Of a DNA stretch of 30,290 nt, positions 2,321 through 30,290 are shown piece by piece. The position numbers were made by a program, and so were the translations under genes. Below the pieces are notes generated by a model, which was given only the letters and a program-made list of their open reading frames with translations, was not told the DNA's origin and ran no database searches. Location of the stretch: the IMG/VR virus record IMGVR_UViG_3300036860_000563, positions 64,001-94,290 of that record, one strand, 5' to 3'. Each line of letters starts with the position of its first letter. Position 1 is the stretch's first letter. Origin of the DNA: a virus. Taxonomy: Duplodnaviria; Heunggongvirae; Uroviricota; Caudoviricetes.

Positions 2321-2330
2321 GTGATCTTAA

Positions 2331-2735: not shown

Positions 2736-2849
2736 GTGACATCACTCCCACCTCACCCTAAAGATCATGTTGACAACGTTGAGTGTCGATATGATGTTGG
2801 TGTGGTGTAGCGTAGACACCGGTAGGATAACACCGGGAGATGACGCACT

Positions 2850-3341: not shown

Positions 3342-3601
3342 ACCCACTGTCACTTCAGCCGGCACGCTTCCTTAACCTCGTGCATCACTACGTCCTACTG
3401 ACGTCGGAACTCGAGACGCACGACCAGCTCAACCGGGAGCTACTCGGCGCACCGACCGTGCGAGGCACCGCACCGGCGATCGTAGGTACGAGCGCCGTAA
3501 CACGCGGCGTGATGGAGGTTCGACCACCGTCGTGGTGGCGCGGTGATGAGCTCGCCGCGCGTGATAGTCTCGCGGCGTTTGCGGCGATGAAGCGTAGGTG
3601 A
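3251..3601 (+). CDS. -1 frameshifted extension of tail assembly chaperone (gpGT-like)
   Basis: The -1 frame is open from 3185 to TGA 3599-3601 and reads PYRAVVGLFTWVGRRDNWHRFDGWCLHRSVDPLSLQPARFLNLVHHY.... The candidate slip site is CGC-CCT-ACC (3249-3257) shifting to CCC-TAC. Confidence 0.7.
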   Translation, partial: PYRAVVGLFTWVGRRDNWHRFDGWCLHRSVDPLSLQPARFLNLVHHYVLLTSELETHDQLNRELLGAPTVRGTAPAIVGTSAVTRGVMEVRPPSWWRGDELAARDSLAAFAAMKRR

Positions 3602-3605
3602 TCGT

Positions 3606-6600: not shown

Positions 6601-6623
6601 CGACGCGGCTACGAACGATCTAA
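3606..6623 (+). CDS. Tape measure protein
   Basis: 1005 aa, Ala/Leu-rich amphipathic repeats (APL..ALG.AL), N-terminal 'VEYVELRA' and C-terminal 'TITVNVGNV'; follows the TAC. Confidence 0.9.
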   Translation: MTEPLDVEYVELRASGTQDTVGDVNAALKIIIREIKKAARTIERELSSAARDAGAALAEDVGAGAQVAQSEVDDMADHIVRDMKRVEREAHDAARAVAGVGLAAKLTTTLRGLVSLGAGFTSIALVSVKFTVILAGLAAIVGAVAVAVVGLTSAVAGLVPLVGGLVAALGTASGVLVVLPGVIATLIGVIATLKVGLHGVGDALKAVASGDVNKLNEAIKDLAPSAQQFVRVVASLQDELKALRLDVQNRLFRDVGVTLKLLAETTLPSVREGLDHIADALNTVVIEAINELNVAVNRTRLDEIFVNIAKTVRSLGVVLAPLGRALIAVIGVGTGVLADLTLGLGESISSLADKITVLAETGELRRIFEDGLVAAGQFLHLATDVLGIIHGIFTAAGGGNSGIFSFFTRLNELVNRPDVQASLNRIFVALSQLGRELTPVLVALARALGPVARALVDVAEAFAPTLITLVTALGDALASLAPAFIALAPLVTVLASGLVPLADVLVGLVTGAAPGLAALLNGIVSALQVLAPVAFTVGSALGEVAASIGQALIPVAHIIADLLVAIAPSAVILFAALADGLERLAPVAPIVGQALGALLNALAPLLPALGTALANALTIAAGLLAEVSDVLGPLVGLVFDAWRAFGEQLTPVLLKLISTALPGLAQLAVDITQAFAPLIPVLSEIAQQFTQALLPVLPGLVVIVQGALLPAVKLLAESLGRELLDALRAIMPFLPTLIDAGVQLAVTFARFFVAIAPLLPPLIQLSALFTEVLLHTGALQAGMLILIGGVVLLTLGLRLITIVISAVVTSLKVIGGAVATFASAISGSFTNAVTFIENLPGKIVSAVGNLGHILFDAGKSVVRGLIDGIKDSLGALKDTLGNVGKFITDHKGPRDVDRQLLTPAGHSIIGGLITGIRDALPGLRDELTGLTASVPLLLNATGVGNGVGSGGASTGGGQTITVNVGNVSFGGAPTPQEALKAGEAVGRGIAAALTQRTPPTRLRTI

Positions 6624-6654
6624 TCACTCAAGTGACCGACGACCGGAGGAACTC

Positions 6655-7371
6655 GTGAGCCTCACCGCCGACCAGGGACTGATCATACCTAACTCGTCCG
6701 ACAACGACAACGTGCCGCTCTCCGTGTCGGATTACAACACCGGCGTTGAGTCACGGTTGGTGAAGCGATACGCGTCTGTGGCCGACCGAACGGCGCGCAA
6801 CGCGACGCCCACCGAGGGTGAGCTGTCGTACCTGCTGGACCTGAACCGGTTTGACTTCTACTCCGGTGCGGCGTGGACGACGCTGCAGTCATCACTCGTA
6901 GCGCAACCCATCACCGTCACGGTGAAGACGGCGACCGAGTCGGTCGTCAGCAGCACGACGATGCAGAACGACAACGACTTCTTCTTCTCGGCGGCCGCCA
7001 GCTCGACGTACAAGGTCGAGCTGGACCTGTTCATCAGCGGTCCCAACGGGTCATCCGTCGGTGAGATCCTGTGTCAGTGGACCGTGCCGACGAGCACCAC
7101 GTCCGACTTTGGAATCATGTCACAGGACTGGGGGCTGGCCAGCGGTGCGATCGGTTCCGTCAACCTGCAGGCCGGACACTCGACGGGCACCACCACGGCC
7201 ACGGTGCTACTGGGCACCTCGGTCTTTCAGTGCTACGCCCGGGTAAGCGCTGTGTTCCGCGTCGGTGGCACGGCCGGTACGATTCAGTTCCAGTGGGCAC
7301 AGAACACCAGCAACGCGACGGCGAGCAACATCCTGGAGGGTTCGAGTATGACGATCATCAAGGTCTCGTGA
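6655..7371 (+). CDS. Minor tail protein
   Basis: The start was re-called to GTG 6655 (SD GGAGGA at 6645-6650). It has the motif 'RYASVADRTARNATPTEGELSYL' and a C-terminal beta-sandwich ('QNDNDFFF...TYKVELDL...QFQWAQN'). Confidence 0.7.
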   Translation: MSLTADQGLIIPNSSDNDNVPLSVSDYNTGVESRLVKRYASVADRTARNATPTEGELSYLLDLNRFDFYSGAAWTTLQSSLVAQPITVTVKTATESVVSSTTMQNDNDFFFSAAASSTYKVELDLFISGPNGSSVGEILCQWTVPTSTTSDFGIMSQDWGLASGAIGSVNLQAGHSTGTTTATVLLGTSVFQCYARVSAVFRVGGTAGTIQFQWAQNTSNATASNILEGSSMTIIKVS

Positions 7372-10006: not shown

Positions 10007-10702
10007 GTGAGTGATCACACACAATCATACGCGATCGTGTTGACGCACAACAGACCGACGGAGCTGGCGTGGTGTGTTGCCGCACTCGTCGACCAGGTTG
10101 ATCACATCATCATCGTGGACAACGCGTCACAGCCGGCCGTCGTCACCGGTGATGTGACGTTTCTCGACCGGGTGAGAGCGTGGACGATCATTTGCGATGA
10201 GGAGCAACCACCTAACCTCGCGCGGCTGATGAACGTTGGTCTCGAGCGGGCGAGTGAGCTCGCCAAGGCGCGAGATCAAGGCACGTACGACGTGGCGATC
10301 GTCTGTGATGATGTGTTCGTGCCCTCCGGCTGGTTCGACGCGGTCGCGACGTGCGTGCGCGCGCACAACGTCGTCGCGGGCAGCACGCACCAGGTGACGC
10401 CCGTCACCCAGCCGATCGTTAAAACGGCACCGGACTCCGACATCCACAACCGAATGCAGGGTTCGGCGTTTGTGACACGTGGTGAGGTGGGCCTACGCGC
10501 CGACGAGCGCATGCACTGGTGGTGGCAGGACACGGACCTGGACTGGCAGGCTCGACTCACCGGCGGCATGGTCATCGCACCGGGACCCGTCGCGCTCAAC
10601 ACTCGTCCCAACGACTTCACGTACTCGGTGCCGGGACTCGCCGAGCGCGCGGGTGTCGACCAGAGAGAGTTTAAGGAGAAGTGGGGTTGGGTACCGTGGT
10701 AG
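10007..10702 (+). CDS. Glycosyltransferase, GT-A/GT2-like
   Basis: 'AIVLTHNRP..L..CVAAL..Q...IIIVDNAS', 'N.GL', 'IVCDDV' and 'WQDTDL' are GT2 motifs. Confidence 0.75.
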   Translation: MSDHTQSYAIVLTHNRPTELAWCVAALVDQVDHIIIVDNASQPAVVTGDVTFLDRVRAWTIICDEEQPPNLARLMNVGLERASELAKARDQGTYDVAIVCDDVFVPSGWFDAVATCVRAHNVVAGSTHQVTPVTQPIVKTAPDSDIHNRMQGSAFVTRGEVGLRADERMHWWWQDTDLDWQARLTGGMVIAPGPVALNTRPNDFTYSVPGLAERAGVDQREFKEKWGWVPW

Positions 10703-10758
10703 ACGTCAGACGCACCACGACGCGCACCACCTTCATTAGGAGCACCGAGACCGATCGT

Positions 10759-10899
10759 ATGACGGTCTTTCACCTTCGAGAGTTCATCAAGGCACTCGAT
10801 GACTCCGGCATACCTGATGACGTCTACGTGACATCACGCCGGGAGAACGCGCACCTCAGCACTCTCTCGGTTCAGTGGAACGAGGACCTCGAACCGTGA
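10759..10899 (+). CDS. Small hypothetical protein (alternative start GTG 10696)
   Basis: It fills the gap between two GT genes, and its stop overlaps the next GTG (GTGA). No family was recognised. Confidence 0.4.
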   Translation: MTVFHLREFIKALDDSGIPDDVYVTSRRENAHLSTLSVQWNEDLEP

Positions 10900-11525
10900 G
10901 CCGCGTCGCGTACGGTGTCTGCGTCGGCTCGTGGGATAAGTTCACGCGTAACGTCGTCCCGCGCGTCGGCGACCGACCGGTGTACGCCCTCGCCGGGCAC
11001 ACCAGCATCGCCGTCGCGTACAACCAGATCCTCCGCACCGTGTGTGACCGACACGCCCTCCCACCCGACGTGCTCGTCCTCCAACACGACGACCTAGAGA
11101 TCACCGATCCCGACGGGGAGGCAAAGCTTCTGACCGCCGTGTCGCAGCCGGGAGTCGCGCTCGCCGGGGTGGCCGGTGCCGCGACCTGTCCCACTCTCGC
11201 GTGGTGGAACACCGACCCGGTCGGGCACCAGGTTACCGATGTGATGAACATTGACTTCGGACAGCGAACCGGAGACGTGATCTTGCTCGAGGGCAGTGTC
11301 CTCGCGTTCTCGCCGTGGGCGATTGCCACTCTTCGGTTTGACGTCCGGTTCCCCGGGTTTCACGGTTACGATGAGATCGGTATGCAGGCCCACCATCACG
11401 GAAAGCGCAACGTCGTGGTGGACGTTGACACTCATCATCACACCGCGATGGGCTTCAAGACGACCGCCAGTCACGAGCAGTGGCTACACGCCGACCGACT
11501 CTTTCGAGAAAAGTGGAAGTTGTGA
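10896..11525 (+). CDS. Glycosyltransferase-like protein (GT-A, 'Glyco_tranf_2_5'-like)
   Basis: The start was re-called to GTG 10896 (GTGA overlap). Motifs 'SIAVAYN', 'LVLQHDDLEI', 'GVAGA', 'FDVRFPGFHGYD' and 'HH'. Confidence 0.72.
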   Translation: MSRVAYGVCVGSWDKFTRNVVPRVGDRPVYALAGHTSIAVAYNQILRTVCDRHALPPDVLVLQHDDLEITDPDGEAKLLTAVSQPGVALAGVAGAATCPTLAWWNTDPVGHQVTDVMNIDFGQRTGDVILLEGSVLAFSPWAIATLRFDVRFPGFHGYDEIGMQAHHHGKRNVVVDVDTHHHTAMGFKTTASHEQWLHADRLFREKWKL

Positions 11526-12736
11526 GACGAACGACGTGTAGCGCGTGTGGTTATGACGACCTGCGGACGTTCCTCGACCTAGGTTCCTCGCCCATCGCCG
11601 ACGCGTACACCAGCTCGCCCGATGAGCTGAGTGACGTGTACCCTCTGCAACTCGCCGTGTGCGCCGGTTGCTGGCTGGTGCAGCTCTTAGAGGTCGTCGA
11701 TCAAGAGACACTATTCGGCACCGGTTACTCGTTCTACTCGTCCGCGTCGGCGCCGCTGTCCAACTATCACGCCACGTACGCCGCGAGTGTTCTCGGGGGC
11801 TACGGTGACCTGGCGCAGCGGTTGACGGTGGAGGTCGGCTGCAACGACGGGGACATGCTTCGTCACTTTCAACGCGCCGGATGCCCCGTGGTGGGTGTGG
11901 ACCCGGCGAGCGGACCGGTCGGCGCCGCGCGCGAGCGTGGGCTCGACGTGCTCGACGTCGCGTTCACGCCTACGGTCGCCGGTGAGCTGCTGGAGGCGCG
12001 AGGTCCCGCCGGGTTGATCATTGCCAACCACGTACTCGCCCACGTCGAGGACGTCTCACACGTGCTCTCGGGCGTCAGCACCCTGCTGGCGGCCGACGGT
12101 GTGGCGTTCGTCGAGGTGCAGTACCTGCCCGACCTGCTCGTGAACAACGCGTTCGACCTGGTGTACCACGAGCACCGCAACTTCTTCTCACTCACCAGCC
12201 TGGAGTGCGCCGCGAGACGCTGGGGACTCTACGTCGCCGACTGGGAGCTCACCCAGCGGCAGGGAGGATCACTTCGTGTCACACTGTCGAAGCAGCGTCA
12301 GCGCACTAGTTCGTCACACACGATCACACGTGAACGTGAAGAGTGGTTGCGTCACACGAGTGCGTATGACGGTCTACAGGGACGAGTAGAGCGCGTTCGC
12401 ACTCGCTTACGTGACCTGCTGTTCGACGAGACGATGAACGGACGCTCAGTCGCGGGCTACGGCGCACCCGCCAAGGCGACGACCCTCCTCAACTTCTGTG
12501 GTATCGACCACCACACGATCGAGTTCATCACCGACACCACACCCGCGAAGTGTGAACGATACGTACCCGGCACCGGAATCCCCATCATGGCTCCGTCCGA
12601 CGCGTTGCGTCACGACGTCGACACGTTCATCATACTCGCGTGGAACTACGCGGCACAGATCATACGAAACAACGTGAAGTTCATGGACGACGGCGGACGC
12701 TGGATCATACCCATCCCGGCACCGGTGCTGCTGTGA
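11522..12736 (+). CDS. NDP-hexose C-methyltransferase (TcaB9/TylC3/EryBIII-like)
   Basis: The start was re-called to GTG 11522 (GTGA overlap). It has the N-terminal Zn site 'CSACG...LDLGSSP...YPL.LAVCAGCWLVQL', then 'VEVGCNDG', 'GVDPA', 'NHVLAHV', 'YHEH..FF', 'GYGAPAKATTLLN', 'GTGIPI' and 'LAWNY'. Confidence 0.9.
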   Translation: MRRTTCSACGYDDLRTFLDLGSSPIADAYTSSPDELSDVYPLQLAVCAGCWLVQLLEVVDQETLFGTGYSFYSSASAPLSNYHATYAASVLGGYGDLAQRLTVEVGCNDGDMLRHFQRAGCPVVGVDPASGPVGAARERGLDVLDVAFTPTVAGELLEARGPAGLIIANHVLAHVEDVSHVLSGVSTLLAADGVAFVEVQYLPDLLVNNAFDLVYHEHRNFFSLTSLECAARRWGLYVADWELTQRQGGSLRVTLSKQRQRTSSSHTITREREEWLRHTSAYDGLQGRVERVRTRLRDLLFDETMNGRSVAGYGAPAKATTLLNFCGIDHHTIEFITDTTPAKCERYVPGTGIPIMAPSDALRHDVDTFIILAWNYAAQIIRNNVKFMDDGGRWIIPIPAPVLL

Positions 12737-13305
12737 TGAGCTTACGCGGTGTTAACGTCGCACGAGAGGCCCATCACGTGAGAGTAAACTTGGGCTGCGG
12801 TGACCGGTACGCCGACGGTTGGCTCAACGTTGACCACGGCGGTTCACCACATCGTAAAGATCTAGAGGTGGACCTTCGCGCGCCGCTTCCGTGGCCACGA
12901 GACTCGATCGCGTACGCGTACGCCGGGCACCTGCTGGAGCACCTGCGCGTTCACGAGGTCGTGGTGTTTCTCGGACGCCTACGTTCGTGCATGCGTGATG
13001 ACGGTGTGCTCACCGTCGTCGGACCCGACCTGGACATCGCCGAGGGCATGGCCGCGGCGGGTACACTCGACGTAACGCTCGACTCACTCCGGTGCGGCGC
13101 CGACCGCTGGGTCGGTGATCGTCACCGCTGGGAGTGTAGCGCACCCGCTGTCGTCACGTTCTTGCGATTGACCGGCTGGGTAGACATACGTGAGTCGAAC
13201 GTTGATGAGCTGCCCGAGCTGTGGCCGGTGGCCGACCGAGGACCGCGGTGGCAGTGCGTCGTGCTCGCCACTCGCGGTTCCGATCCCCCGGGCGACGCCG
13301 CGTGA
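12736..13305 (+). CDS. Class I SAM-dependent methyltransferase (small-molecule/sugar type)
   Basis: The start was re-called to ATG 12736 (TGATG overlap). Motifs 'VNLGCG....GWLNVD', 'DL..PLPW...S....YAGHLLEHL'. Confidence 0.8.
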   Translation: MSLRGVNVAREAHHVRVNLGCGDRYADGWLNVDHGGSPHRKDLEVDLRAPLPWPRDSIAYAYAGHLLEHLRVHEVVVFLGRLRSCMRDDGVLTVVGPDLDIAEGMAAAGTLDVTLDSLRCGADRWVGDRHRWECSAPAVVTFLRLTGWVDIRESNVDELPELWPVADRGPRWQCVVLATRGSDPPGDAA

Positions 13306-13904
13306 TCGACATCACCGTGGCGATACCGACGATCGCACCTCGTGCCGCGCCGGGTGGGTTGTTAGAGCGAGCGCTACGAAGCGTAAGCGCCCAGACGTCA
13401 CCACCTAGTGGTGGAACGTCGTGTGCGCTCGACGTCGACAAGGTCGGCGCCGCTGGGACGCGACAGCGAGCGCTCGACGCGGTGCGCACCGAGTGGGTAG
13501 CCTTCTTAGATGATGACGACACGTGGTACCCGCACCACCTTAGTGCGCTCTCACAGCTCGCCGAAGACACCGGGGCCGCGTACTTATTCACGTGGTTTGA
13601 CGGCAACAACCCGTTTCCCGCACACCGTGGCCGGGCGTTCGACGTGACGCAACCTCATCACACCACGATGACGGTGATGGTAAAGACCGAGCTCGCGCGA
13701 GTCGCGGGCTTCATCCAACCGGACGGACCGATGCACCAGGACTGGGCCGGTGAGGACTGGCAGTTCACGCTACGCTGCGCGGCTGAGCTGGTGCGGCGGC
13801 ACGGGGTGACCGGGGCTAACGCACGCTTTGCCGGCACGGGTGACGTTACGTGGACGTACCACGTGCACGGCGGTAACACCAGTGGCCTACCGACGAGATG
13901 GTGA
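13302..13904 (+). CDS. Glycosyltransferase, GT2-like
   Basis: The start was re-called to GTG 13302 (GTGA overlap). Motifs 'ITVAIPTI', 'RALRSV.AQ', 'EWVAFLDDDD', 'EDW' and 'YHVHGGNTSG'. Confidence 0.82.
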   Translation: MIDITVAIPTIAPRAAPGGLLERALRSVSAQTSPPSGGTSCALDVDKVGAAGTRQRALDAVRTEWVAFLDDDDTWYPHHLSALSQLAEDTGAAYLFTWFDGNNPFPAHRGRAFDVTQPHHTTMTVMVKTELARVAGFIQPDGPMHQDWAGEDWQFTLRCAAELVRRHGVTGANARFAGTGDVTWTYHVHGGNTSGLPTRW

Positions 13905-20168: not shown

Positions 20169-21428
20169 TCATTGTATCATAAACTTTCGCCAGGCGTTTG
20201 TGACGTTGACGCACCACTCCCGCTCACCGATCGCGTCACCACGCCACGCACCGGGCTCACCGTCGAGCGCCCGGTAAACCCACTCACCGATCCAGCGACC
20301 GCACTGCACGGAGATTCCCTTGCCCCAGGTCGCCGACAGTCCCGACACCCCGCGCAGTGGTGCGATCTTCCAGTCATCTGGAAAGCCGAGCACGCGGGCG
20401 GCCTCACGGTGAGTGATCATTCGGTCGAGCCAGGGGTGAACCACCGTCACGAGTGAGCCACCCGTGATGACGCGCGCCGCACACTCGCCGTCCCAGCGCA
20501 CGGGAGTGGTGAAACCCATGCGAAACTCGTTCTTTACGATCTTCTCCTCGGTGGCCTGGAACGAGTCCGGCAGCCGGGCGTTGTCATCGTAGAACCGATG
20601 TGCGACGGTGGAGATGGACTCACCGGGGCGCCACTCCACACCACGGAGCAGGTCACCGACGCGACGCGTTAGGGGGGTGTGCAGCCCGACGTGACCGTCC
20701 ACCACACCACTAGGTGACCGCAGCGGCTCGGCCCAGCGGCTCGCGGGCGCGCGGTACGACTGGGCACCCCACGACTCACCCAGCGGTGCTAGGTCACTAA
20801 TGACGTCGTTGAGCGCCGGCAGACGCCGAGGCTCGGGTGGTTCGATCCCGAACGGCACACGTGAGATGAGCCAGAAGTAGCGTCGCCGCTGGGCGGCACC
20901 GCCCACCGAGTACGCGTTGTGAAGCACGTGATGTAGGTCCCACCGGTGACCGGTGCGCTCCTCGACGCGCGCGCGCAGCCGGCGCATGAGCTCGAGACCG
21001 TCCGGTTTGGTGAACGCTTGTTGGACGCTTTCAAATGCTATGATGTACGGATCGCATTTGATGGCGTAGTCGACGAACGCCCACGTGCAACCGAGGATGC
21101 TGGACTCAGCACCACGAAAGTCTTTTGCGCTCATTACACTCCACGCACTGCAGGGCGGGTTTCCCACAACTACATCGGCTCGTACCGGTGTCCACGCCTC
21201 GTGTGGAACTGCCTCGTAGGTCCAGTTTTTACCGAGCACGTGTCGGTTAGTGAGACAGCTGGATAGTCCGAACCCACCCTTCATCTCGGCACGGTGAATG
21301 AGACGAAATCCGGCCTGCACCATGCCGGTGTCGAAGCCACCGGCGAACGTCTGACATCCTACGTAAGTATACAACGTTATCGCCGCTTTTAGCTCTGCGT
21401 AACGCCGCACTTGTGACGACTTACCCAC
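20169..21428 (-). CDS. DNA cytosine-C5 methyltransferase-fold protein with divergent motif I (start uncertain)
   Basis: Motif IV 'VVVGNPPCSAWS', VI 'FESV', VIII 'AQRRRRYF', IX 'RMITHREAARVLGFPDDW' and X 'WGKGIS'. Motif I reads GCQTFAGGFDTG rather than DLFxGxGG. Confidence 0.85.
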   Translation of the reverse strand: MGKSSQVRRYAELKAAITLYTYVGCQTFAGGFDTGMVQAGFRLIHRAEMKGGFGLSSCLTNRHVLGKNWTYEAVPHEAWTPVRADVVVGNPPCSAWSVMSAKDFRGAESSILGCTWAFVDYAIKCDPYIIAFESVQQAFTKPDGLELMRRLRARVEERTGHRWDLHHVLHNAYSVGGAAQRRRYFWLISRVPFGIEPPEPRRLPALNDVISDLAPLGESWGAQSYRAPASRWAEPLRSPSGVVDGHVGLHTPLTRRVGDLLRGVEWRPGESISTVAHRFYDDNARLPDSFQATEEKIVKNEFRMGFTTPVRWDGECAARVITGGSLVTVVHPWLDRMITHREAARVLGFPDDWKIAPLRGVSGLSATWGKGISVQCGRWIGEWVYRALDGEPGAWRGDAIGEREWCVNVTNAWRKFMIQ

Positions 21429-21865
21429 GTGGGGCTTGACGTAAATTCACACCATTGACACGTCTTACGTGTGAGTTGTGCTACACGAACCGCGTCTCTT
21501 ACGCGCTGTGGTCTCTGTTTGCCGTACATAGGATTAAGTACGCCGGGACTCCCCTTCTTTGCGTTAACTTCTTGAGAGAACTTCATACCGTTTGTCGGAG
21601 ATGGTCGATCCTTATAATTTACATGACGACGTCGAAGTTCGTCAGCGTCAGGTGCGTGATGTCGTTGATGACACCTAACATGTGTCATCACTACATTGCT
21701 AGGTGCGTCGTTCACCGCGTTATCATCTACGTGATGAACGTTACCGTCCCACTTTTCATGACCTATGACGGTAACTTTATCACCACAGAAAAAGCAAGAC
21801 CATGGTCCACTGTCGTGTGTCTCGTAGAACACATTCATCGTTCGTCGATGATTACGCGAACCCAT
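21389..21865 (-). CDS. HNH endonuclease with NUMOD3-like motif
   Basis: 'CFFCG...VHHVDDNAVNDAPSNVVMTHVRCHQRHH' and 'NPMYGKQRP'. It is more A+T-rich than its neighbours. Confidence 0.75.
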   Translation of the reverse strand: MGSRNHRRTMNVFYETHDSGPWSCFFCGDKVTVIGHEKWDGNVHHVDDNAVNDAPSNVVMTHVRCHQRHHAPDADELRRRHVNYKDRPSPTNGMKFSQEVNAKKGSPGVLNPMYGKQRPQRVRDAVRVAQLTRKTCQWCEFTSSPTWVSRHKCGVTQS

Positions 21866-21901
21866 GGTTAAATCTACTAGGATCTAAGACTGAGGGTCAG
21901 G

Positions 21902-22219
21902 TCAGTCTCTAAGGTATGGCCACACAACGTCGAACGAAAGACTCACACCACACGGACCACAGAACACCTTCTCGATACCACCGTGCGGTGAGTTGGCCTC
22001 GAGATCCGCGCTCTCAATGTCCGCGAGACAGCTAACAGTGTGTAAGACACCGAGCGCCGGATCGGCCGTTAGAGTGACAGCGTCGAGAACCGATGTGCTG
22101 AACGGCTCGAACAACTAGCGTGACGTTACGTCACAGTCAAGTGAGATGAGTGAGTACACCAGCTCATCAACTACTCGTTCACGCGCATCAAAACGCGTGG
22201 CGACGTAGGTGCGTATCAT
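21902..22219 (-). pseudogene. 105-codon ORF interrupted by a single in-frame TAG (22115-22117)
   Basis: ATG 22219 overlaps the dUTPase stop (ATGA). There are 34 codons, then TAG, then in the same frame the 70-aa ORF 21902-22114, whose TTG start lacks an SD. Confidence 0.45.
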
Positions 22220-22755
22220 ATCTTTGAATCACCGTTCAGCGAGTTGACGACGTCAAGCTCGAGCGGATGTGAGCACGGGCCGCACCACGCACCGACGAGT
22301 ACACCACTGAGCGATGACCGGGTCTTGATGACGTTGACGTCGTCGAGGGCGCGGCCACAGCCCGGGCACTTCGTCGAGTGACCGTCATAACCGTGACGCT
22401 GCCGAGCGACGTTAGCAGCGCGCTTCGCGTAGTACGTGTCGACGAACCTCACCGCGAGCTCGTCGGCTGTGTCACCTGGGTACGCCGCCCACGCGACGTT
22501 CATGATGAAGTGCCACGCGTCCACGAGCTCGTGAAGTAACCGGTCCGAGTGAACCGCACGCTCACCGATCGTCCACGACTTCCACGTCGTCTCGTCGAGC
22601 GCCTCGTGCAGCTCGTGAACCGCGGCGAGCACCATCTCTTTCACGTACGAGACGCGCTGATCGATCGTCATACTCGCAAACTCGTAGCCGAGTGTGTTTT
22701 CCTGCAGCTCCCGCTGGGCGGCCAACATCTCGGTGAGCTCACCAGGCCAAGGCAC
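22216..22755 (-). CDS. All-alpha dimeric dUTPase/MazG-like NTP pyrophosphatase with C-terminal CxxC..CxxC (alternative start 22773)
   Basis: 'ML..QRELQ', 'ELHEALDETTWKSW', 'ELVDAWHF' and 'Y.AK...N.ARQ..GY', followed by CPGC...CGPC. Confidence 0.8.
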   Translation of the reverse strand: MPWPGELTEMLAAQRELQENTLGYEFASMTIDQRVSYVKEMVLAAVHELHEALDETTWKSWTIGERAVHSDRLLHELVDAWHFIMNVAWAAYPGDTADELAVRFVDTYYAKRAANVARQRHGYDGHSTKCPGCGRALDDVNVIKTRSSLSGVLVGAWCGPCSHPLELDVVNSLNGDSKI

Positions 22756-23686
22756 GACGCACGCCCTTCTCAATCGAGATCTTCGCGGTGTGAAGCTCGT
22801 TCATGATCGTCGGGTCACCAACGCGGTGGGTTACACCCAGTGGTTGATCGGGGTCGACGAGCGTCACCGGCGCGTAGTCGACCTCCCGCTGGACGAGCAG
22901 TGCGAGGTCAAGTAGTGACGTACCGACCCCGGTGCACAGGTTGACCGGGCGACACTCATCGGCGTCGACGACCGCGAGCGCACCGTTCACCAGGTCAGAG
23001 ACGTGAATAAAGTCACGGGTCTGGTCAGCGCGTCCCCAGATCGTAAACGGATCTTCACGTCGGCGCGCTCGCTCCACGAACGCGCGAAACGGAAAGTTCT
23101 CCGACTGATCCTCACCGTAGCCGGAGAACGGTCGTACGATGTGAACCGGTAACCCGTTCCGCTGGGCGATGACCGCCTGCAACTCACCTACGTACTTCGT
23201 CCACCCGTACGTCCGGTCGGGCACCCGCACCGGTGAGTCATCGAGCGCGTCGGCGAGGTCGACGTACGCGTCAACCTCATGCAGCCTGGTGTCGATGAAC
23301 TCGTCGGTCTGCAGCGCCACCGGGTAGATCGCCGATGACGAGACGTAGAGTAGTCGCCGCTGGTGTGTGTACATCGCCCAGGAGAAGATCGCCGCGTCCA
23401 GTGCGACGTTGTATGAGAAGTTAGCGTTCACGGCGTCGATCGCGGCCCGGTGCGGCTCGCGTGCGGCGCAGTGAACGACGAGATCGAACACGGTGCTGGT
23501 GTTTACACGGCAGAAGTTGTGAGCATCCTGCATCACGTGAATTCGACTCACGTGGTTGGGAAACCAAGAAACGTCAACCCGTTCGAGGTCCACCGAGGTG
23601 ACGAACCAACCACGACGCTCTAGCTCGTCACTAAAGTGTCGACCGAGGAAACCGGCACCACCGGTAACGAGTGCGGTCTTAGTCAT
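22739..23686 (-). CDS. NAD-dependent NDP-sugar epimerase/dehydratase (extended SDR)
   Basis: The start was re-called to ATG 23686. Motifs 'ALVTGGAGFLG', 'VVHCAA', 'YVSSSAIY', 'YGWTK', 'RPFSGYG' and 'QTRDFIHVSD'. Confidence 0.9.
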   Translation of the reverse strand: MTKTALVTGGAGFLGRHFSDELERRGWFVTSVDLERVDVSWFPNHVSRIHVMQDAHNFCRVNTSTVFDLVVHCAAREPHRAAIDAVNANFSYNVALDAAIFSWAMYTHQRRLLYVSSSAIYPVALQTDEFIDTRLHEVDAYVDLADALDDSPVRVPDRTYGWTKYVGELQAVIAQRNGLPVHIVRPFSGYGEDQSENFPFRAFVERARRREDPFTIWGRADQTRDFIHVSDLVNGALAVVDADECRPVNLCTGVGTSLLDLALLVQREVDYAPVTLVDPDQPLGVTHRVGDPTIMNELHTAKISIEKGVRRALAW

Positions 23687-23687
23687 G

Positions 23688-24749
23688 TCACAGAGCTCCC
23701 AGCGCCTGCAGGTCGGTGAGCCACGCCTCAAAGCCGTCACGCGTCTGATCGGGAAGCCACGGGAGTTCGTCCAGCGCCGAGTAGCACCGGGTGATGAAGT
23801 CACCGAGCTCGGCGCTGGACCAGTCCTCATTCGTACTTTCATCACCGAACGTGACGTCACGCAGGACAGCGCAGAGTTCCTCGGTGTGACGCATACCGAA
23901 CAGCTCCGCGTCGAGGTCCGCGAAGATGTCGTGCTCGTTGCGCGTCTGCGTCACGAGAGGCTCACCGTACCACACGAGGTAACCCAGGTGGTCCATGACG
24001 CACCGCGCGAGGTACGATGCCCAGACGTCGTCATAGCGACCAACTCCCGGCCAGACCATCATCAACGGCGCGAGTTCCGCCCGGTACGCGACGGCCTGTG
24101 AGTTGAACGGCGCCCACGTGCCGGGTGCCAGTGCGGCACCCGGGTGCCAGTGCGACGACATGCGGTCGGTGGCTACACGACCGAGCGCGAGACGCGTCGC
24201 CGCGTCGACGTCCGGGTCACCACGCCACAGGGACGCGTGTACCCCGACCGGCAGAGCGTCGTGCACCTCGGTGAACACGTGAATCTCATCTCGCTGGGTG
24301 ATGGGAAAACCTCGGTGAAACGTCGAGGCGCCGAACATCACCAGCGGGTTGAACCAGCCCGACGAGCTGTCGATGATCACCGTCGCGTCGGTGGTGGCCT
24401 CCGACAGCGCTCGGTGAACCATCCCCCACTGGTCGGCCTCATCCGGCCAGTTGTCGTCGTCCACCGTCATGATCCACTCGGGTTTGAGCGCGATCGCCTC
24501 GAGCAGCGCGACGTTACGCCGCTGAACCGAGTTCCACCCGACGGCCTCACTCGTCTTCCACCCAAGCTGCGCGCTGGGCGCGAGGTAGCGGTTGTCGCCG
24601 GGCAGCTCGGCGAGCAGGTCGGTGACGGCCTCGTGCGGTGTGTTGCGGTCACCGGCGACGATGATGACGTCATCATCCATCATACCCGCCGCGCGCCACA
24701 TGCGTAGGTTCTTAGGAACGTTGATCGTGGTTGTGATGAGAGCGCGCAC
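23688..24749 (-). CDS. RGP/STELLO-like (GT75-related) nucleotide-sugar mutase or glycosyltransferase
   Basis: The start was re-called to GTG 24749 (AGGAG 8 nt upstream). Motifs 'ITTTIN', 'VAGDRNTP', 'RRNVALLEA', 'TVDDDN', 'RGFP', 'LWRGDPDVDA..RL', 'PFNSQ', 'GRYDDVW' and 'Q.RNEH...DL..E'. Confidence 0.75.
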   Translation of the reverse strand: MRALITTTINVPKNLRMWRAAGMMDDDVIIVAGDRNTPHEAVTDLLAELPGDNRYLAPSAQLGWKTSEAVGWNSVQRRNVALLEAIALKPEWIMTVDDDNWPDEADQWGMVHRALSEATTDATVIIDSSSGWFNPLVMFGASTFHRGFPITQRDEIHVFTEVHDALPVGVHASLWRGDPDVDAATRLALGRVATDRMSSHWHPGAALAPGTWAPFNSQAVAYRAELAPLMMVWPGVGRYDDVWASYLARCVMDHLGYLVWYGEPLVTQTRNEHDIFADLDAELFGMRHTEELCAVLRDVTFGDESTNEDWSSAELGDFITRCYSALDELPWLPDQTRDGFEAWLTDLQALGAL

Positions 24750-24760
24750 GTGCGTGGCTC

Positions 24761-24919
24761 CTAGTCGTAGAGAGTGTGATCGAGTATGATGAGACCGACA
24801 CCGATGACGATCGCGATGAGTGCGAGATACCACCTGTCCGGAGCGAAGCAGAGCATGCCGCCACCGCCGGCGATGAACACGCCACCTACGGCGTTAAGGT
24901 CTATGACGTCACGGGCCAC
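24761..24919 (-). CDS. Small 52-aa membrane protein (not in ORF track)
   Basis: GTG 24919 has GAGGAG upstream and TAG at 24761-24763. It reads VARDVIDLNAVGGVFIAGGGGMLCFAPDRWYLALIAIVIGVGLIILDHTLYD and exactly fills the gap between two operon genes. Confidence 0.5.
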   Translation of the reverse strand: MARDVIDLNAVGGVFIAGGGGMLCFAPDRWYLALIAIVIGVGLIILDHTLYD

Positions 24920-26250
24920 ACTCGCTCCTCGATGAGTCGTACGTAGCGTAGCTCGGTGAGTGCGTTGCCAAAGTGAACGCGCTGCGCACGCACCAAGTGA
25001 AGCCAGTCGTGACGACCGGCGTCGGAGTTGAGGTGAGTAACGCGCCGGTGTAGATCACCCGGTGAGTCGGCGCGAAGCCAGTCGCGAAGGTACGGCGCAG
25101 CGTCGCCGAGAACGTTGTTCTGCGTGTCGTAGAGCGGGTGAAAGAAGCACACCGTACCGGCCGCGAACGCCTCCCAGGGCTTCGCGGTGGCCCAGCCGGA
25201 GCCGCTGGACGGCGTCGTGAACGTGGACCGTACAGAGTGAAGTAGTGGGTAGTACTCAGCCCAGGGTGCCGGCGTGATCCGTCGGTTGAGGTGCGTCTGT
25301 GACACGTCGGACCACGTGCCGTGAACCCACTTAGGTGCGAGTGGCAGCACCCAGTCACGTACGATGTCTCTCCGACGCGTCGCGTCGGACGTGCGTGGTG
25401 ACGCCTCGTTGATGAACATGCCGAAGCTGTCCCGGTGATCCCACTCTTCGTCGTACGAGATGAGATCACCGAACGGTGTCCCGGGCAGCAGGCCGTTGAC
25501 CTCGAGGCGTGAGTACACGTTGTGCACCGTCGAGCGCCACACCGTGGCGTCGTCGTGAGCGTCCCAGAGCGGCTCCACCTCGTTCTTCGTCTCACGTTCC
25601 CAGTCACTCCAGCCGCCCGTGTCATCGTAGCGCTCGTGCTTGAGCGGGTGGTGAAACGTGAACTGGGTGAGCACCGGGTGCCGAAGTGGCCACTTTAGGT
25701 CTCGCATCTTGTGACGGTTGCGAGAGTCCGCGTTGAGGTAGACCTCCTCACGCTTCCACGGGTCGACGTCACGCCACAGGTTGACGCCCCGGAAGAGGTA
25801 CGAGCAGTAGTAGGCACACCAGTCGTAGGGCTTGGTGAGCTGGTCTCGGTCGTCGACTCGTGGTATCGGTGTGTTCGTCGTGCCGTGCTGACCCACCCAG
25901 AGTATGATCGCGTCGAGGTCGAGGATCGTCGGTAGTGTGAGTGCGTCGAAGATGTCCTGCAGTGAGAGCTGCTCCACGGACGACAGGTTGGCGTGATTGA
26001 GCTGTGCGTCATTGATCTCACGTCGTAGCCGGGGTGCCCACTCGATCCACGGGTTCTCGACGTTGTCGGGTAACCCGACGTCGGTGGGCCGCGAGCCGTC
26101 GTTGCGACCGATGAGCACGAAGGTGTCAGCTGGGTGTCGCTGGGCGAGTGTCTTTACGACCGCGGCCATCTCCACGTCACCGCCGAGCGTTCCACAGCGT
26201 CCCAGTGATAGGGGCATCGACCGGCCGATCTTTCCATACCCGACTCTCAA
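24901..26250 (-). CDS. T4 beta-glucosyltransferase-like (GT-B) DNA glycosyltransferase
   Basis: By-eye colinear match to T4 BGT recalled from memory: GGDVEM~PSSETI, YLNADSRN~YLFTDIRL, YSRLEVNGL~YFPIEQYKI, TAKPWEAFAAG..FFHPLYDTQNNV~TLRVWETMASD..LIDEEFDTKHRI, SPGDLHRRVTHL~NRAELIDRVNEL. Confidence 0.75.
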   Translation of the reverse strand: MRVGYGKIGRSMPLSLGRCGTLGGDVEMAAVVKTLAQRHPADTFVLIGRNDGSRPTDVGLPDNVENPWIEWAPRLRREINDAQLNHANLSSVEQLSLQDIFDALTLPTILDLDAIILWVGQHGTTNTPIPRVDDRDQLTKPYDWCAYYCSYLFRGVNLWRDVDPWKREEVYLNADSRNRHKMRDLKWPLRHPVLTQFTFHHPLKHERYDDTGGWSDWERETKNEVEPLWDAHDDATVWRSTVHNVYSRLEVNGLLPGTPFGDLISYDEEWDHRDSFGMFINEASPRTSDATRRRDIVRDWVLPLAPKWVHGTWSDVSQTHLNRRITPAPWAEYYPLLHSVRSTFTTPSSGSGWATAKPWEAFAAGTVCFFHPLYDTQNNVLGDAAPYLRDWLRADSPGDLHRRVTHLNSDAGRHDWLHLVRAQRVHFGNALTELRYVRLIEERVWPVTS

Positions 26251-26415: not shown

Positions 26416-27045
26416 TTAGAACGGCGGCTCCGGTGGCGCCGATGACGGTGTCGCCGGTGGTCCGGGCACCGACGCCGGTGACGTTGGCATCGCCGGCGAC
26501 GTCGGCATCGGTGATGACGGTGACGTCACTCCGGCCACCGGCCAACCGCTCAGCGACGGTACTGGAGCCGGCGAGCCACCCACCGGCGGAGTCGGTAGCG
26601 CCGGACCAGCAACGCCACCGGGGAGAGCCGCACCGGCGACTCCGCTGGGCGCCAGCAGCTTGATCTCGTTGCGTGGAACTCCCTGCCACTCGCGCACCCC
26701 GGTCTGGGCTCGCGCGCGCCGGTTGAGCAGCGCCGTCGCGACGTGTGCTAGTCCCTGGCCACCGAGCTGTGAGAAGAACACGCCGTCGAGTCCGAACGCC
26801 GCCATGTGACGGAAGAAGATGCTGAGCGCGAAGCCGTTGTCCGGCGACAGCACGAACTGGTTGAAGAGCTGCCGGCCCGCGAAGGGACCCGACTTCACCT
26901 CCATGACGACCTTGATCATCTCCGAGCCGGTGGACGCGAACGTCGCGTCCGCCTTGATGATCTCGACGTCGTACCAGTCGTCGGGCAGTGGCTTCGTCGC
27001 GTCCTCGGCGGTCTTACGCAGGCTGCTCCAGTCGATCTCACTCAT
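26416..27045 (-). CDS. DUF669-like ssDNA-binding protein
   Basis: SD GGAGG. Motifs 'PLPDDWYDVEI..A....STGSEMIK...EV..GPFAGRQLF', then a Pro-rich tail ending PPF. Confidence 0.7.
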   Translation of the reverse strand: MSEIDWSSLRKTAEDATKPLPDDWYDVEIIKADATFASTGSEMIKVVMEVKSGPFAGRQLFNQFVLSPDNGFALSIFFRHMAAFGLDGVFFSQLGGQGLAHVATALLNRRARAQTGVREWQGVPRNEIKLLAPSGVAGAALPGGVAGPALPTPPVGGSPAPVPSLSGWPVAGVTSPSSPMPTSPAMPTSPASVPGPPATPSSAPPEPPF

Positions 27046-27079: not shown

Positions 27080-27865
27080 TCATTTTAGGGACGAGGGTGA
27101 CGACGGTGACTCGCCGAACACCTGCGTCATCATACGTGTGATGTGTGGGTCATCGATGACGTCGGGCAACGCTCCCTGAACGCGCTCACCCGCGATGATG
27201 GACGGCACCACACCCTCGCCGATGAGGAGCTTCTTCAGCTTACCGGTCGACTGGCCGTTCGCGTCCTGGGTGAGCTCGGTGTACAGGTAACCGCAGATGT
27301 CGACCCAGTAGGGTAGCGCGCGACCGATCTGGCCCTGCATCGCGGGACGCCACGCGCCGTCCTTGAACTCGGTCTCGGCGATGAACACAACGCAGCGTAG
27401 TGGGTTGGGCTCCGGCAGCAGCACCAGGTCACGCATGCTCCTGATGAGCATGTCCATGTGTACGAGCAGGTCGCCCCAGTCTTGGATCCGGAGCTGCTCG
27501 GTGCCGCGAAGCTGCATCTTCAACTTTCGCTGTGACTCGGTGACGGAGTCGAGCACCAGCGAGTGAAAGTCGTGCGCGTCGACGTGTGAGAGCCACTGGT
27601 AGGCCTGCGTGAGTGTGCTCCACTTTCTCACCATGACGTGACAGAAGTCCCACGTGCCGTCGTAGCGCGGTGGCGGTCCCTGGAGTGGGTCCCACTCGAT
27701 GCGCCGAAGTGGCACGCCGGACCGGTAGCCGGCCTCTCTCACGTACTTCCAGCCACCCTCCGCGTCGAGAACGCAGATGGGTGGTGGCGCGGTCGTGCTG
27801 AGAGTGGACTTACCGACCTTGGCGGACGAGTGAATGAGTAGTGACGTCGTCTCGTATGAGCTCAA
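27080..27865 (-). CDS. AAA_24 / Sak4-like ATPase
   Basis: Walker A variant 'SSAKVGKST', 'VLDAEGG', Walker B 'LVLDSVT', 'DWG' and 'FIAE'; sits between the exonuclease and the SSB. Confidence 0.8.
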   Translation of the reverse strand: MSSYETTSLLIHSSAKVGKSTLSTTAPPPICVLDAEGGWKYVREAGYRSGVPLRRIEWDPLQGPPPRYDGTWDFCHVMVRKWSTLTQAYQWLSHVDAHDFHSLVLDSVTESQRKLKMQLRGTEQLRIQDWGDLLVHMDMLIRSMRDLVLLPEPNPLRCVVFIAETEFKDGAWRPAMQGQIGRALPYWVDICGYLYTELTQDANGQSTGKLKKLLIGEGVVPSIIAGERVQGALPDVIDDPHITRMMTQVFGESPSSPSSLK

Positions 27866-29433
27866 GTAGCTGCCCCGTCTTCACCGTCGCTCGTGATTAA
27901 GTCACGTGTGTAGTAGCTAAGTGGGTCATCTTTCACGTAGAGCCGCGACATGGCGTCCTCGACTCTCGAGTTATCATCCATCATACCACAAGTCGCGAAG
28001 AACGGACACTTCCACGCGCAGTCACGCGTGGGTCGCGGGTACGCGACGTTGAGGTGATGCTCGCCGTCGTCGAGACGATGACGAACCGCCGCGACGTCAC
28101 GTACGGTCGCGGTGAGTCTCCGACGAAACGACGCAACCTCGTGCGCGTTGTGGTGCACCTCAACTCGCTGGTAGAAGGGTGGTTGGGCCGTCGGACCTCG
28201 CTTAACACGTCGGAGCATGTTGTAGAGCGCGCCGACGACTCGTGGTTCTCCACGAGCTTGAAGATCCTCTACGAGCGTCTGGTGCAGCACCTGCTCATCG
28301 AGGTGCAACGTGCGAACCGCGGCCGCGAGGCTCATAACGGTTTTATGCTCAAGCCAGAGGCGCACGCCGTCGTAAGAGCGTCGTACTCGCGCGTCCAGCT
28401 TAGCGATGATCTTCGTGGGTTCATCGACGCCGGGCAGCTCAGCCTCGAGGTACGCCTCCGGCTCGACGATGACGTACTCGGCGTCCGCACCGGTCTCGGC
28501 GAGCCACTCGACGTACCCAGCCAACACGGCGCGCTCGAGGTTGGCGTCGCTCTCAAACCGCTTAACCAACTCGCGGTCGAGGAACACCTCGTCGGCGTCA
28601 CGCTCGGCCACGAGAGCGGTCCAGTCCTCGACGATGAGACGCTCCAGCGCGTCACGGGGATCGGTTCGCTGGGTAACACCGTCATCGGGAACGTACCACC
28701 GCCGCAGTACCCGGTGAACTCGGTCTCCGACGGCGCGTGGGCCGACGGGTGACTCTCTCACGGGCCTCAGCCCCCGGTACCAACCGAGGTACCAGCGGCG
28801 ACGGCAGTCCTTGAACGTCTGCACCTCGCTGTTCGCGTACCGCCGGTAACCGTCGATCGCCGAGAGTGCTGTGGGCGACACACCGGTGTACGACACCGGT
28901 GCACGAACCGACTCGGACGAGTCATCGTCAAGCATAGGTGTGAACGGTGTGTCGTCGTCGACGGCGGTGATGACACTCACGGGCTGAGTGGTAGCCGACT
29001 CAGAGAAGATGGCGTGAACGCCGACGTCTGGGTTGGCGTCCACCACCGCGTGTCGTTCGTCGACATCACTCAGCCCGTGAGTGTCGTCTTCACTACCGTT
29101 CCTACCGTCCACATCATCCACTGGTCGTGGTGCTGGACTCGCCGTTGCATCTGCTTCTACTGCTACTGCTACTGCTACTGCTACTGCTACTACCCGTTCT
29201 TCGGCGCTCTGTGATATCCCCGGTACCGGCTCGGCCGGCGTCGGATGTGCCACAGCGGCAGCGACCTGGCGAATCGCCGCAGCTTCTTCGTCACTTACTA
29301 CCCTACCCTTCTCGATGTTGAACACCTTGGCCGGTGTGAGACCCGTGAGTGAAGCGAGGCGCGCTCGTGAGTGCGTCTCACGAAGCCGTGTGATGATCTC
29401 GTGGGGAGTTTCGGCGTGAGAGAGCTCGGTCAC
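27862..29433 (-). CDS. Cas4/RecB-like PD-(D/E)XK exonuclease with N-terminal HTH and low-complexity linker
   Basis: 'SEVQTFKDCRRRWY', 'GDRVH..L', 'KLDA', 'LEHKT' and 'CAWKCPFFATC' (4-Cys Fe-S staple). The N-terminus 'SRARLASLTGLTPAKVFNIEKG' is XRE-like. Confidence 0.8.
   Translation of the reverse strand: MTELSHAETPHEIITRLRETHSRARLASLTGLTPAKVFNIEKGRVVSDEEAAAIRQVAAAVAHPTPAEPVPGISQSAEERVVAVAVAVAVAVEADATASPAPRPVDDVDGRNGSEDDTHGLSDVDERHAVVDANPDVGVHAIFSESATTQPVSVITAVDDDTPFTPMLDDDSSESVRAPVSYTGVSPTALSAIDGYRRYANSEVQTFKDCRRRWYLGWYRGLRPVRESPVGPRAVGDRVHRVLRRWYVPDDGVTQRTDPRDALERLIVEDWTALVAERDADEVFLDRELVKRFESDANLERAVLAGYVEWLAETGADAEYVIVEPEAYLEAELPGVDEPTKIIAKLDARVRRSYDGVRLWLEHKTVMSLAAAVRTLHLDEQVLHQTLVEDLQARGEPRVVGALYNMLRRVKRGPTAQPPFYQRVEVHHNAHEVASFRRRLTATVRDVAAVRHRLDDGEHHLNVAYPRPTRDCAWKCPFFATCGMMDDNSRVEDAMSRLYVKDDPLSYYTRDLITSDGEDGAAT
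29161..29190. repeat. (TGCTAC)5 perfect hexamer repeat encoding (Val-Ala)n in the exonuclease linker
   Basis: tgctac x5 at 29161-29190, with degenerate flanking copies. Confidence 0.9.
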
Positions 29434-30290
29434 GGCGCTCCTAGGTTACTCATCATGATGCGAGACTCCTCGTCGAGCAGCGGTGCTGGATCACTCGTAA
29501 CTCCCGCGGCCGCGAGTCGTGCGCGATCTCGGTTGATCTCTTCGAGTCGACCCAGCTTCTCGGTGAGTCGTGGAAAGAGCACCGTCTCCTCGATGGTACC
29601 CTGCGCGACGATATCGATGACGTTGATCGAGTCGTGACGCTCGGAGCCGATCCGGTTGACGCGGCCCTCCAGTTGAACGTTTGAGATCATCTTCCACGAG
29701 CGCTGCAGCACGACGAGGGTGTCGGCCACCTGCAGGCCGTCCACACCCGTGCCACCGGCGTCGATCGTCAACAGTACCGCGCCGAGGTCACCCGCGTTGA
29801 ACCGGTCCACGGTGCGCTGACGTTCATACTCACTCACCGGGCCGGTGATGTACCCAAACGGCAGTCCACGCTTCTCCAACCGGCGACCCGCGAGCTCGAT
29901 GAGCTGGCGCGACTGGGCCGCGACGACGACGGGACGCGGGCCGAGCTCATCGAGCACGTCCTCGAGTGCGTCGAGCTTCGATGACGGCTCGGTCAGAGTG
30001 ACGACGATCTTGAGAGCGTCTTGACACGCCGGGTCGTGCCGATCGAGGCCACGACCACAGCACTCGCACCTCGACTGAGCGGTTAGTGGCTGCTCGACGT
30101 GCTCGACGGTGGCGTACGACGCCGCGAGCTGGAGCAACCGCGTGGCGCGAACGAGGTTATTTGGTGAGATCAAGATCGTTCCGTCGTCCAACTGGGTGAT
30201 GAGCTGCCGCTCGAGCTCGCGGTAGGCGCGCTCCTGCTTCGGAACCAGCTCGACCCAGCGGGTCGCTCATACGACCCTCGGTAGTTGGTC
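29430..30290 (-). CDS. SNF2/superfamily-2 helicase, C-terminal part (5'-truncated; in-frame TGA at 30267-30269)
   Basis: 'SKLDAL', 'GYITG', 'ER...VDRFN', 'LLTIDAGGTGVD.L..AD.LV.LQRSW....Q.EGRVNRIG'. The same frame upstream reads DQLPRVV*ATRWVELVPKQERAYREL. Confidence 0.8.

Follow-up and report, generated by a model that had tools for sequence, protein, structure and literature searches.

How a phage might make its own nucleotide sugar and attach it to the cytosines of its DNA, and which enzyme would first supply the hydroxyl group to which the sugar is joined, are the questions raised by a run of genes in the virus record IMGVR_UViG_3300036860_000563. The genes lie at positions 20,169 to 26,250 of the window, by which is meant the whole stretch of 30,290 nucleotides that was analyzed, the final part of a 94,290-bp IMG/VR record graded complete by CheckV. 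They encode a glycosyltransferase (GT) that resembles the β-glucosyltransferase (BGT) of phage T4, a mutase of family GT75, a short-chain dehydrogenase/reductase (SDR), a dUTPase-like pyrophosphatase and a protein with the fold of C5-cytosine methyltransferases (MTases). All five are on the minus strand, downstream of DUF669, AAA_24, PD-(D/E)XK and Helicase_C genes. An initial annotation correctly placed them behind such a replication module, and read them as a candidate novel operon for the sugar hypermodification of DNA in which the acceptor hydroxyl had no obvious source. We consider it likely that the DNA of this phage contains glycosylated 5-hydroxymethylcytosine (5hmC) and that the sugar donor is a furanose, probably GDP-linked.

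The window would then hold the half of a T4-like system for cytosine hypermodification that acts after replication; every step of that system is proposed from the sequences, the folds and the gene neighborhood. A d(C/U)TPase resembling T4 gp56 would convert dCTP (and dUTP) to the monophosphate, the sole thymidylate synthase (TS) homolog of the phage, encoded just outside the window, would hydroxymethylate dCMP, and a thymidylate-kinase-like kinase together with host enzymes would raise the product to 5hm-dCTP, which the phage PolA would put into DNA. The SDR and the GT75 mutase would convert a host nucleoside diphosphate (NDP)-hexose, most likely GDP-linked and drawn from GDP-mannose or GDP-fucose, to an NDP-furanose, and the BGT-like enzyme, of the GT-B type, would join this sugar to 5hmC in DNA at its hydroxymethyl group, giving a shield against host nucleases.

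The hydroxyl group had been left either to the MTase-fold protein or to a gene beyond the window, and it is the second of these that was found. The same operon crosses the record ends and continues at genome positions 1971–6662 (minus strand), where a TS homolog with the signature of T4 gp42 stands beside a kinase and a dCMP deaminase gene and is transcribed in the same direction. When the rest of the genome was searched for a hydroxymethylase or a TET gene, as initially proposed, this was the sole match to PF00303; no ThyX scored over its cut-off and TET/JBP (PF12851) had no match in the genome, so that both a second thymidylate synthase and a TET/JBP route to 5hmC were rejected. The best relative of the TS homolog in the PDB is the CMP hydroxymethylase MilA. 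In the numbering of E. coli ThyA, the change N177D denotes a cytosine substrate, L143D/E a product other than the methylated one, and D169N a 5-hydroxycytosine synthase (Lee et al., PMC13326640). In an alignment with E. coli ThyA, T4 gp42, SPO1 gp29 and the Pootjesviridae enzyme of OLIVR5, with sequences taken from annotated records, the TS homolog had D143, C146, D169 and D177, identical to T4 gp42, while the controls read as published (N177 in SPO1, N169 in OLIVR5). The motif around position 177 is unambiguous, MRSQDVWLGSPYD with Asp as against QRSCDVFLGLPFN with Asn177. The protein is a member of PF00303, and the full pattern, including the catalytic Cys146, is common to all 35 TS homologs that adjoin members of the GT family. 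Because the residues are those of gp42, the controls were correct and the 35 neighbors are alike, the predicted product is 5-hydroxymethyl-dCMP and neither dTMP nor 5-hydroxy-dCMP. A 5-hydroxy-dCMP synthase of the RB69 gp48 type was rejected since Asp is kept at position 169, which is Asn in the OLIVR5 control.

The pyrophosphatase fits the nucleotide-pool role that had been suggested for it. Its family profile aligned with the T4 gp56 dCTPase/dUTPase at an hhalign probability of 97.9% (E 5e-13), and the match to the dimeric dUTPase of C. jejuni (1w2y) had an E value of 1e-9. The enzyme is predicted to clean the pool of dCTP and dUTP, of which we infer dCTP hydrolysis from the likeness to gp56. 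Its family also has a zinc-ribbon-like C-terminal tail with three invariant cysteines (C136, C139 and C167 in the window protein), a tail that T4 gp56 lacks.

The GT had no match in Pfam, PHROGs or NCBIfam, and tblastn of deposited phages gave one weak match only, to a Pseudoalteromonas phage. Its family is known from metagenomes alone, with 713 homologs at E < 0.001, the best 120 of which are 56–69% identical, and an exhaustive search gave 216 clusters at 50% identity. An AlphaFold2 model made from 40 homologs (pLDDT 85) has the two-Rossmann GT-B fold, and T4 BGT is its nearest solved structure by two methods, leading the runner-up fold by 2.5 Z units; the initial BGT-like call and the modeling proposed to check it are in agreement. 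In a viral structure library the second match to the model is annotated as a DNA beta-glucosyltransferase (TM 0.72). At the level of sequence profiles, hhalign gave a local match to T4 BGT of 53 columns in the C-terminal halves of both, with a probability of 39%. The enzyme can be called BGT-like by its modeled fold and its context, and it falls outside the BGT sequence family. That it transfers a sugar onto 5hmC in duplex DNA is predicted from its co-occurrence with gp42-type TS homologs.

This co-occurrence was assessed in 71 related IMG/VR viral loci, all of them co-oriented, where the subsets with enough flanking sequence were counted. Where at least 4.5 kb was available downstream (49 loci), the pyrophosphatase was present in 45, the MTase-like gene in 47 and at least one recognized sugar-activation gene in 43. 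Where at least 9.9 kb was available upstream (40 loci), a TS homolog lay in the flank of 33 and elsewhere on the contig in six of the seven others, and the lone locus without one is a 16-kb fragment. The relatives have a fixed order, namely the thymidylate-kinase-like kinase, the Thymidylat_synt homolog, dCMP deaminase, PolA, SNF2 helicase, PD-(D/E)XK, AAA_24, DUF669, the transferase, a variable sugar cassette, dUTPase_2 and DNA_methylase. An arrangement that recurs co-oriented in 71 loci is far beyond chance, and the neighborhood check that had been called for is answered by transferase, pyrophosphatase, MTase-like and gp42-type genes that co-occur almost without exception. Distant GT homologs with other gene orders (L077, L083 and L085; 28–38% identity) also have a TS homolog within 1.6–3.8 kb, and in L083 and L085 the kinase is near as well. 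Since these distant, rearranged loci keep the TS homolog, the GT family is tied to cytosine modification beyond what a shared phage backbone would give.

As for the donor, the mutase had been labeled RGP, a label that holds in that the protein is a GT75 mutase and fails in that it is not like the plant RGP enzymes or UDP-arabinopyranose mutases (UAMs). Its best solved relative is bacterial MtdL/Hyg20 (PDB 7XPR and related), a GDP-L-galactose/L-fucose pyranose–furanose mutase; MtdL is from an actinomycete, and its Mn-, diphosphate- and sugar-binding residues were shown by Du et al. (PMC9937993). The match to MtdL has an E value of 1e-29 when the window protein is used alone and 4.6e-60 with the profile of its family, and that to plant UAM (8cid) one of 1e-6; by family profile the scores are 206 bits to MtdL and 31 bits to 8cid, and a mutase of the plant type was set aside for the MtdL type on these scores. 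The 39 phage homologs keep the equivalents of the DDD motif, Arg159, Asp195, Ser228-Gln229, Arg257, Asp260, Arg289 and His292, the DDDN and RGFP motifs are invariant among them, and in profile, DDD and the nucleophilic Arg159 they are members of GT75. The retention of these catalytic residues favors the furanose that had been suggested as the transferred sugar, while the disaccharide suggested beside it finds nothing in its favor, the module having a single transferase. The window mutase also has the residues of MtdL at Thr13, Asp40, Asn42 and Ser86, positions tied to selectivity for GDP over UDP. Because the mutase is MtdL-like and has these residues, a route through a GDP-L-hexofuranose appears more likely, as judged from the sequence, than one through UDP-arabinofuranose. 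The partner SDR has an intact NAD motif (GxxGxxG), an SSS motif and YxxxK, so that the Ser/Tyr/Lys triad is conserved, and the profile of its own subgroup scored 112 bits with GDP-mannose 3,5-epimerase (GME) and 104 bits with GDP-fucose synthase. An NDP-sugar SDR and a pyranose-to-furanose mutase that sit within a replication and nucleotide module agree with the earlier view that the phage makes its own nucleotide sugar. The cassette probably makes a GDP-linked NDP-furanose of the L-galacto or L-fuco type, and it would do so for DNA modification, whereas MtdL serves antibiotic biosynthesis. Among deposited cultured phages, a GT75 mutase homolog was found only in the T4-like cyanophages of Synechococcus S-T4, Sf-CH5 and Sf-CH8 (33–35% identity), and the match in Sf-CH8 overlaps with a phosphoheptose isomerase annotation as well.

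The same pathway could instead run on UDP-L-arabinofuranose or UDP-galactofuranose made in the plant manner, which is how the RGP and arabinose reading had it, but we regard this as unlikely. The Pfam match is indeed RGP, plant GT75 enzymes do make UDP-arabinofuranose and UDP-galactofuranose (PMC9937993), the position of Thr13 is Pro in 11 of the 39 phage homologs, as it is in the plant enzymes that use UDP-sugars, and phage DSL-LC01 has a UDP-galactopyranose mutase in the corresponding slot. The profile scores, the GDP-selectivity residues of the window mutase and the SDR, which is nearest to enzymes of GDP-sugars, all argue for the GDP-linked donor.

It is only the sugar-activation cassette that is exchanged among the relatives. 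In sister phages its place is taken by a GT75 mutase alone, by an APH-like kinase with a nucleotidyltransferase, or by a nucleotidyltransferase alone, and the kinase and nucleotidyltransferase domain pair is known to serve UDP-arabinose in RB69 and DLP3 (PMC13326640). In DSL-LC01 the UDP-galactopyranose mutase adjoins an unrelated transferase, and in locus L006 an alternative cassette includes open reading frames (ORFs) of 203 and 372 aa that had no family or PDB match. Cassette types cluster on the GT tree (10 changes vs 32 when shuffled), on which the kinase/nucleotidyltransferase type arose three times or more. With its core constant and its sugar genes interchangeable, the module looks like a natural means of varying the glycans on DNA in response to glycosylase defenses and type IV restriction.

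Several points weigh against a glycosylated 5hmC made with a GDP-furanose. The Mn-binding His287 of MtdL is Gln in the window mutase and in 36 of the 39 phage homologs, a difference from MtdL that leaves the mutase activity inferred and not assured. The position of GME Cys145 is Ala in the SDR's own subgroup (it is Cys in 6 of 24 sister SDRs) and the segment with Lys217 is missing from the SDR alignment. These two residues we take to be the acid/base pair of GME epimerization. A GME-type 3,5-epimerase role was rejected for the window SDR because the pair is missing, and the higher score of a mixed profile that includes the sister SDRs (GME, 274 bits) is misleadingly strong, being driven by the sisters that bear the Cys. 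With an SDR that lacks the Cys/Lys pair for 3,5-epimerization, the route to the donor cannot be given step by step. The GT sequence follows cassette type only loosely, and its tree is uninformative on donor specificity. A conserved enzyme of the C5-MTase fold is hard to fit where C5 is already substituted. Finally, the NDP-sugar might in truth be used by a late operon (window 10007–13904, plus strand) that encodes GT2-type transferases and an NDP-hexose C-methyltransferase (Methyltransf_14, E 4e-44).

The last point belongs to the main rival reading, in which the DNA has 5hmC while the sugars handled by the BGT-like transferase and the SDR/mutase cassette go to some other acceptor, such as virion proteins or a polymer of the host envelope. 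Glycosylation of virion proteins occurs in some mycobacteriophages, and the GT2 and C-methyltransferase set of the late operon is probably a second glycan system that serves this end. That the BGT-like GT does so too is quite unlikely, since it always lies within the replication and nucleotide module, between the genes for the SSB-like (single-stranded DNA-binding protein-like) and dCTPase-like proteins, and never in the virion operon, since gp42-type TS homologs accompany it even where the locus is distant and rearranged, and since T4 BGT stands clear of the next fold in the structural comparison.

It is very improbable that no base is replaced at all, with the kinase, TS homolog and dCMP deaminase forming an ordinary set for dTTP, the MTase making 5-methylcytosine at some sites and the sugar genes being unrelated passengers. 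The three enzymes do correspond to the textbook route to dTMP, and depositors have labeled the homologs as thymidylate synthase and kinase, but Asp replaces Asn177 and, in 36 of 36 sequences, Leu143, the TS homolog reaches only 76 bits with PF00303, and the set co-occurs tightly with the BGT-like enzyme and the gp56 homolog. The fallback of the initial annotation, that the divergent MTase-fold enzyme itself creates the acceptor hydroxyl on cytosine in DNA, is hardly credible, for although its catalytic Cys and Glu are intact and its cofactor-side motifs altered, a hydroxymethylase with the gp42 signature is encoded here and in all of the related genomes checked that were reasonably complete, which makes such a source unnecessary, and the literature searched gave no precedent.

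The MTase-fold protein is nonetheless a constant component of the module, and is placed there because its close homologs (E < 1e-70) among deposited phages occur only in eight Gordonia phages, Kurnik and DSL-LC01, which are also the phages that possess the TS homolog. A survey of motifs in 55 family members found that the Pro-Cys nucleophile, the Glu of motif VI, the Arg residues of motif VIII and motif IX are kept, while the family has invariantly lost the positions of HhaI F18 and G20 in motif I, changed ENV to ESV and changed the GN of motif X to G-K-G. In fold and catalytic residues these proteins are C5-MTases, and they lack the canonical motifs on the side of S-adenosylmethionine (SAM), namely F-x-G-x-G, ENV and the Gly-Asn of motif X. 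When profiles were aligned with M.HhaI and M.HaeIII, the invariant Lys coincided exactly with HhaI Asn304. In CmoX, a natural phage enzyme that carboxymethylates DNA cytosine at C5, the Arg at this position binds the carboxylate of carboxy-SAM (Cx-SAM), as does the engineered N374K of M.MpeI (Yang et al., PMC12783734). A Cx-SAM carboxymethyltransferase was, however, not adopted as a reading, given that the window family has Lys and NPPC where CmoX has Arg and SPPC, and that CmoA (TIGR00740), encoded on most CmoX contigs (PMC12783734), had no match in this genome, nor in the five complete relatives searched. The window protein also scores higher to ordinary MTases. If 5hmC takes the place of C in this genome, as predicted, an obvious substrate is lacking for methylation and carboxymethylation alike. 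This MTase-fold family, with its change from Asn to Lys, is a candidate for new C5-cytosine chemistry. A bolder and on balance doubtful extension of the pathway would be that the virion DNA carries an undescribed 5-(L-hexofuranosyl-oxymethyl)cytosine, made from a GDP-furanose supplied by the GT75 mutase, and that the MTase-fold enzyme does not methylate but uses an anionic SAM analogue or a 5hmC substrate to form a second cytosine adduct.

The claim of a novel operon was overstated in so far as the pathway follows the known scheme of T4 and RB69. The roles in T4 (gp56 dCTPase, gp42, gp1 kinase, Cd deaminase and BGT, which yields glucosyl-5hmC) are all represented here, with TS residues as in gp42, a pyrophosphatase homologous to gp56 and a transferase whose nearest structure is BGT. 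Unlike T4, this phage probably infects high-GC actinobacteria, its replication module is PolA-based, its kinase is thymidylate-kinase-like where T4 has gp1, no relation of its transferase to the BGT sequence family is detectable, an NDP-furanose is predicted to be made by the phage where T4 takes UDP-glucose from the host, and a C5-MTase-fold gene is added. The phages RB69, DLP3 and RL38J1 (of Rhizobium), which have glycosylated 5-hydroxycytosine (Lee et al., NAR 2026, PMC13326640), are similar to it in placing the TS homolog beside a thymidylate-kinase-like kinase and GT-B transferases and in encoding the synthesis of an NDP-sugar (furanose), and their kinase and nucleotidyltransferase pair is found in sister contigs of the window. 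Their TS homologs have Asn169 and give 5-hydroxycytosine, whereas Asp169 here is of the hydroxymethylase type, and their furanose comes from an arabinose-5-P route or a flavin-dependent UDP-galactopyranose mutase, in contrast to the GT75 mutase here. What sets this system apart from T4 and from RB69/DLP3/RL38J1 is the host group, the unannotated transferase family, the GT75 furanose route (probably with a GDP-sugar) and the constant MTase-fold partner. If the pathway is as proposed, sugar-coated cytosine DNA of the T4 type extends to a large uncultured group of actinophages from soil and freshwater (over 700 homologs of the transferase, encoded on 60–104-kb contigs), and the metal-dependent GT75 mutase, probably acting on GDP-sugars, would be a new donor route in phage DNA chemistry.

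The same module logic is seen in DSL-LC01, assembled from a lake metagenome, in Micrococcus phage Kurnik and in the Gordonia phages GodonK, GMA2 and six relatives, with MTase-like proteins of the same subfamily at 34–38% identity; Kurnik and GodonK were isolated on their hosts. In Kurnik, GodonK and DSL-LC01 the TS homolog bears the gp42 signature, and the order of transferase(s), NTP pyrophosphatase and MTase-like gene is kept. The difference lies in the transferases, which are not detectably related to the window GT family (the GT profile had no detectable homology to those of DSL-LC01, Kurnik and GodonK), and in the GT75 mutase, which none of these phages has. Literature searches on hydroxymethylcytosine in actinophages, on GT75 in phages and on phage Kurnik found no paper describing the module, and none was found on the DNA chemistry of Kurnik, the Gordonia phages or DSL-LC01. 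Cultured relatives such as Kurnik, GodonK and GMA2 allow the core prediction to be tested directly. In DSL-LC01 a small class I SAM-dependent methyltransferase is encoded just upstream of the MTase-like gene (L013:27435-27947), and the motif I region of the MTase-like protein is fully degenerate.

The source is probably an uncultured, siphovirus-like phage of a high-GC, actinobacterial host. The window has a GC content of 60–67%, and genes for WhiB, DUF932 and a GH25 endolysin, together with relatives that are binned with or named after Actinomycetia, indicate such a host; none of 50,697 deposited phage genomes was matched by the window in a megablast search. The genes of the module are listed in Table 1, where the starts given as probable for the mutase and the SDR were proposed from N-termini conserved among homologs. 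The proteins matching RGP, Epimerase, dUTPase_2 and DNA_methylase, four of the five, exceed the curated Pfam cut-offs.

Table 1. Genes of the predicted cytosine modification module and its surroundings (window positions unless marked as genome positions).
Feature	Position	Strand	Remarks
C5-cytosine-methyltransferase-fold protein	20169-21428	-	PF00145, 51 bits
HNH homing-endonuclease-like ORF	21389-21865	-	phrog_15471, E 3.5e-4
70-aa ORF	21902-22114	-	No Pfam/PHROG match; probably part of low-GC insertion
All-alpha dimeric d(C/U)TPase (dUTPase_2)	22216-22773	-	PF08761, E 2e-11, 44.8 bits vs cut-off 22.9; phrog_18650 dUTPase, E 7e-26
Extended SDR, NDP-sugar	22739-23860 (maximal ORF); probable start 23686	-	PF01370, E 1.5e-30
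GT75/RGP mutase, MtdL type	23688-24833; probable start GTG at 24749	-	PF03214, 38.8 bits, cut-off 23.8
BGT-like GT-B glycosyltransferase, predicted DNA (5hmC) glycosyltransferase	24901-26250	-	449 aa
DUF669/SSB-like	26416-27045	-	
AAA_24 ATPase	27080-27865	-	
PD-(D/E)XK exonuclease	27862-29433	-	
Helicase_C piece	29430-30191	-	
PolA	genome 1971-3881	-	
dCMP deaminase	genome 4003-4476	-	
gp42-type thymidylate synthase homolog	genome 4736-5572	-	PF00303, 76 bits
P-loop dNMP kinase, thymidylate-kinase-like	genome 5706-6662	-	

The five genes had been described as co-oriented and abutting or overlapping. Their co-orientation stands, and the rest applies to part of the run only, as the mutase and SDR genes are 1 nt apart and the SDR and dUTPase genes overlap by 35 nt, but 151 nt separate the GT from the GT75 mutase. 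The list of genes was likewise right for the five and omitted the two ORFs between the dUTPase and the MTase-like gene. These form an island (21389–22114) with a GC content of 45–51% as against 62–68% in its flanks; the HNH ORF is present in 4 of the 71 related loci, and tblastn of the 71 loci with the 70-aa ORF gave no match. Because of its low GC content and its absence from nearly all relatives, the island looks like a recent homing-endonuclease insertion outside the pathway. At the other end of the module, the SNF2 helicase is represented by a Helicase_C piece of 253 aa before the record end, whereas relatives have a single ORF of 630–670 aa, and the gene seems to be split by the record boundary or by an insertion, despite the CheckV call of a complete genome.

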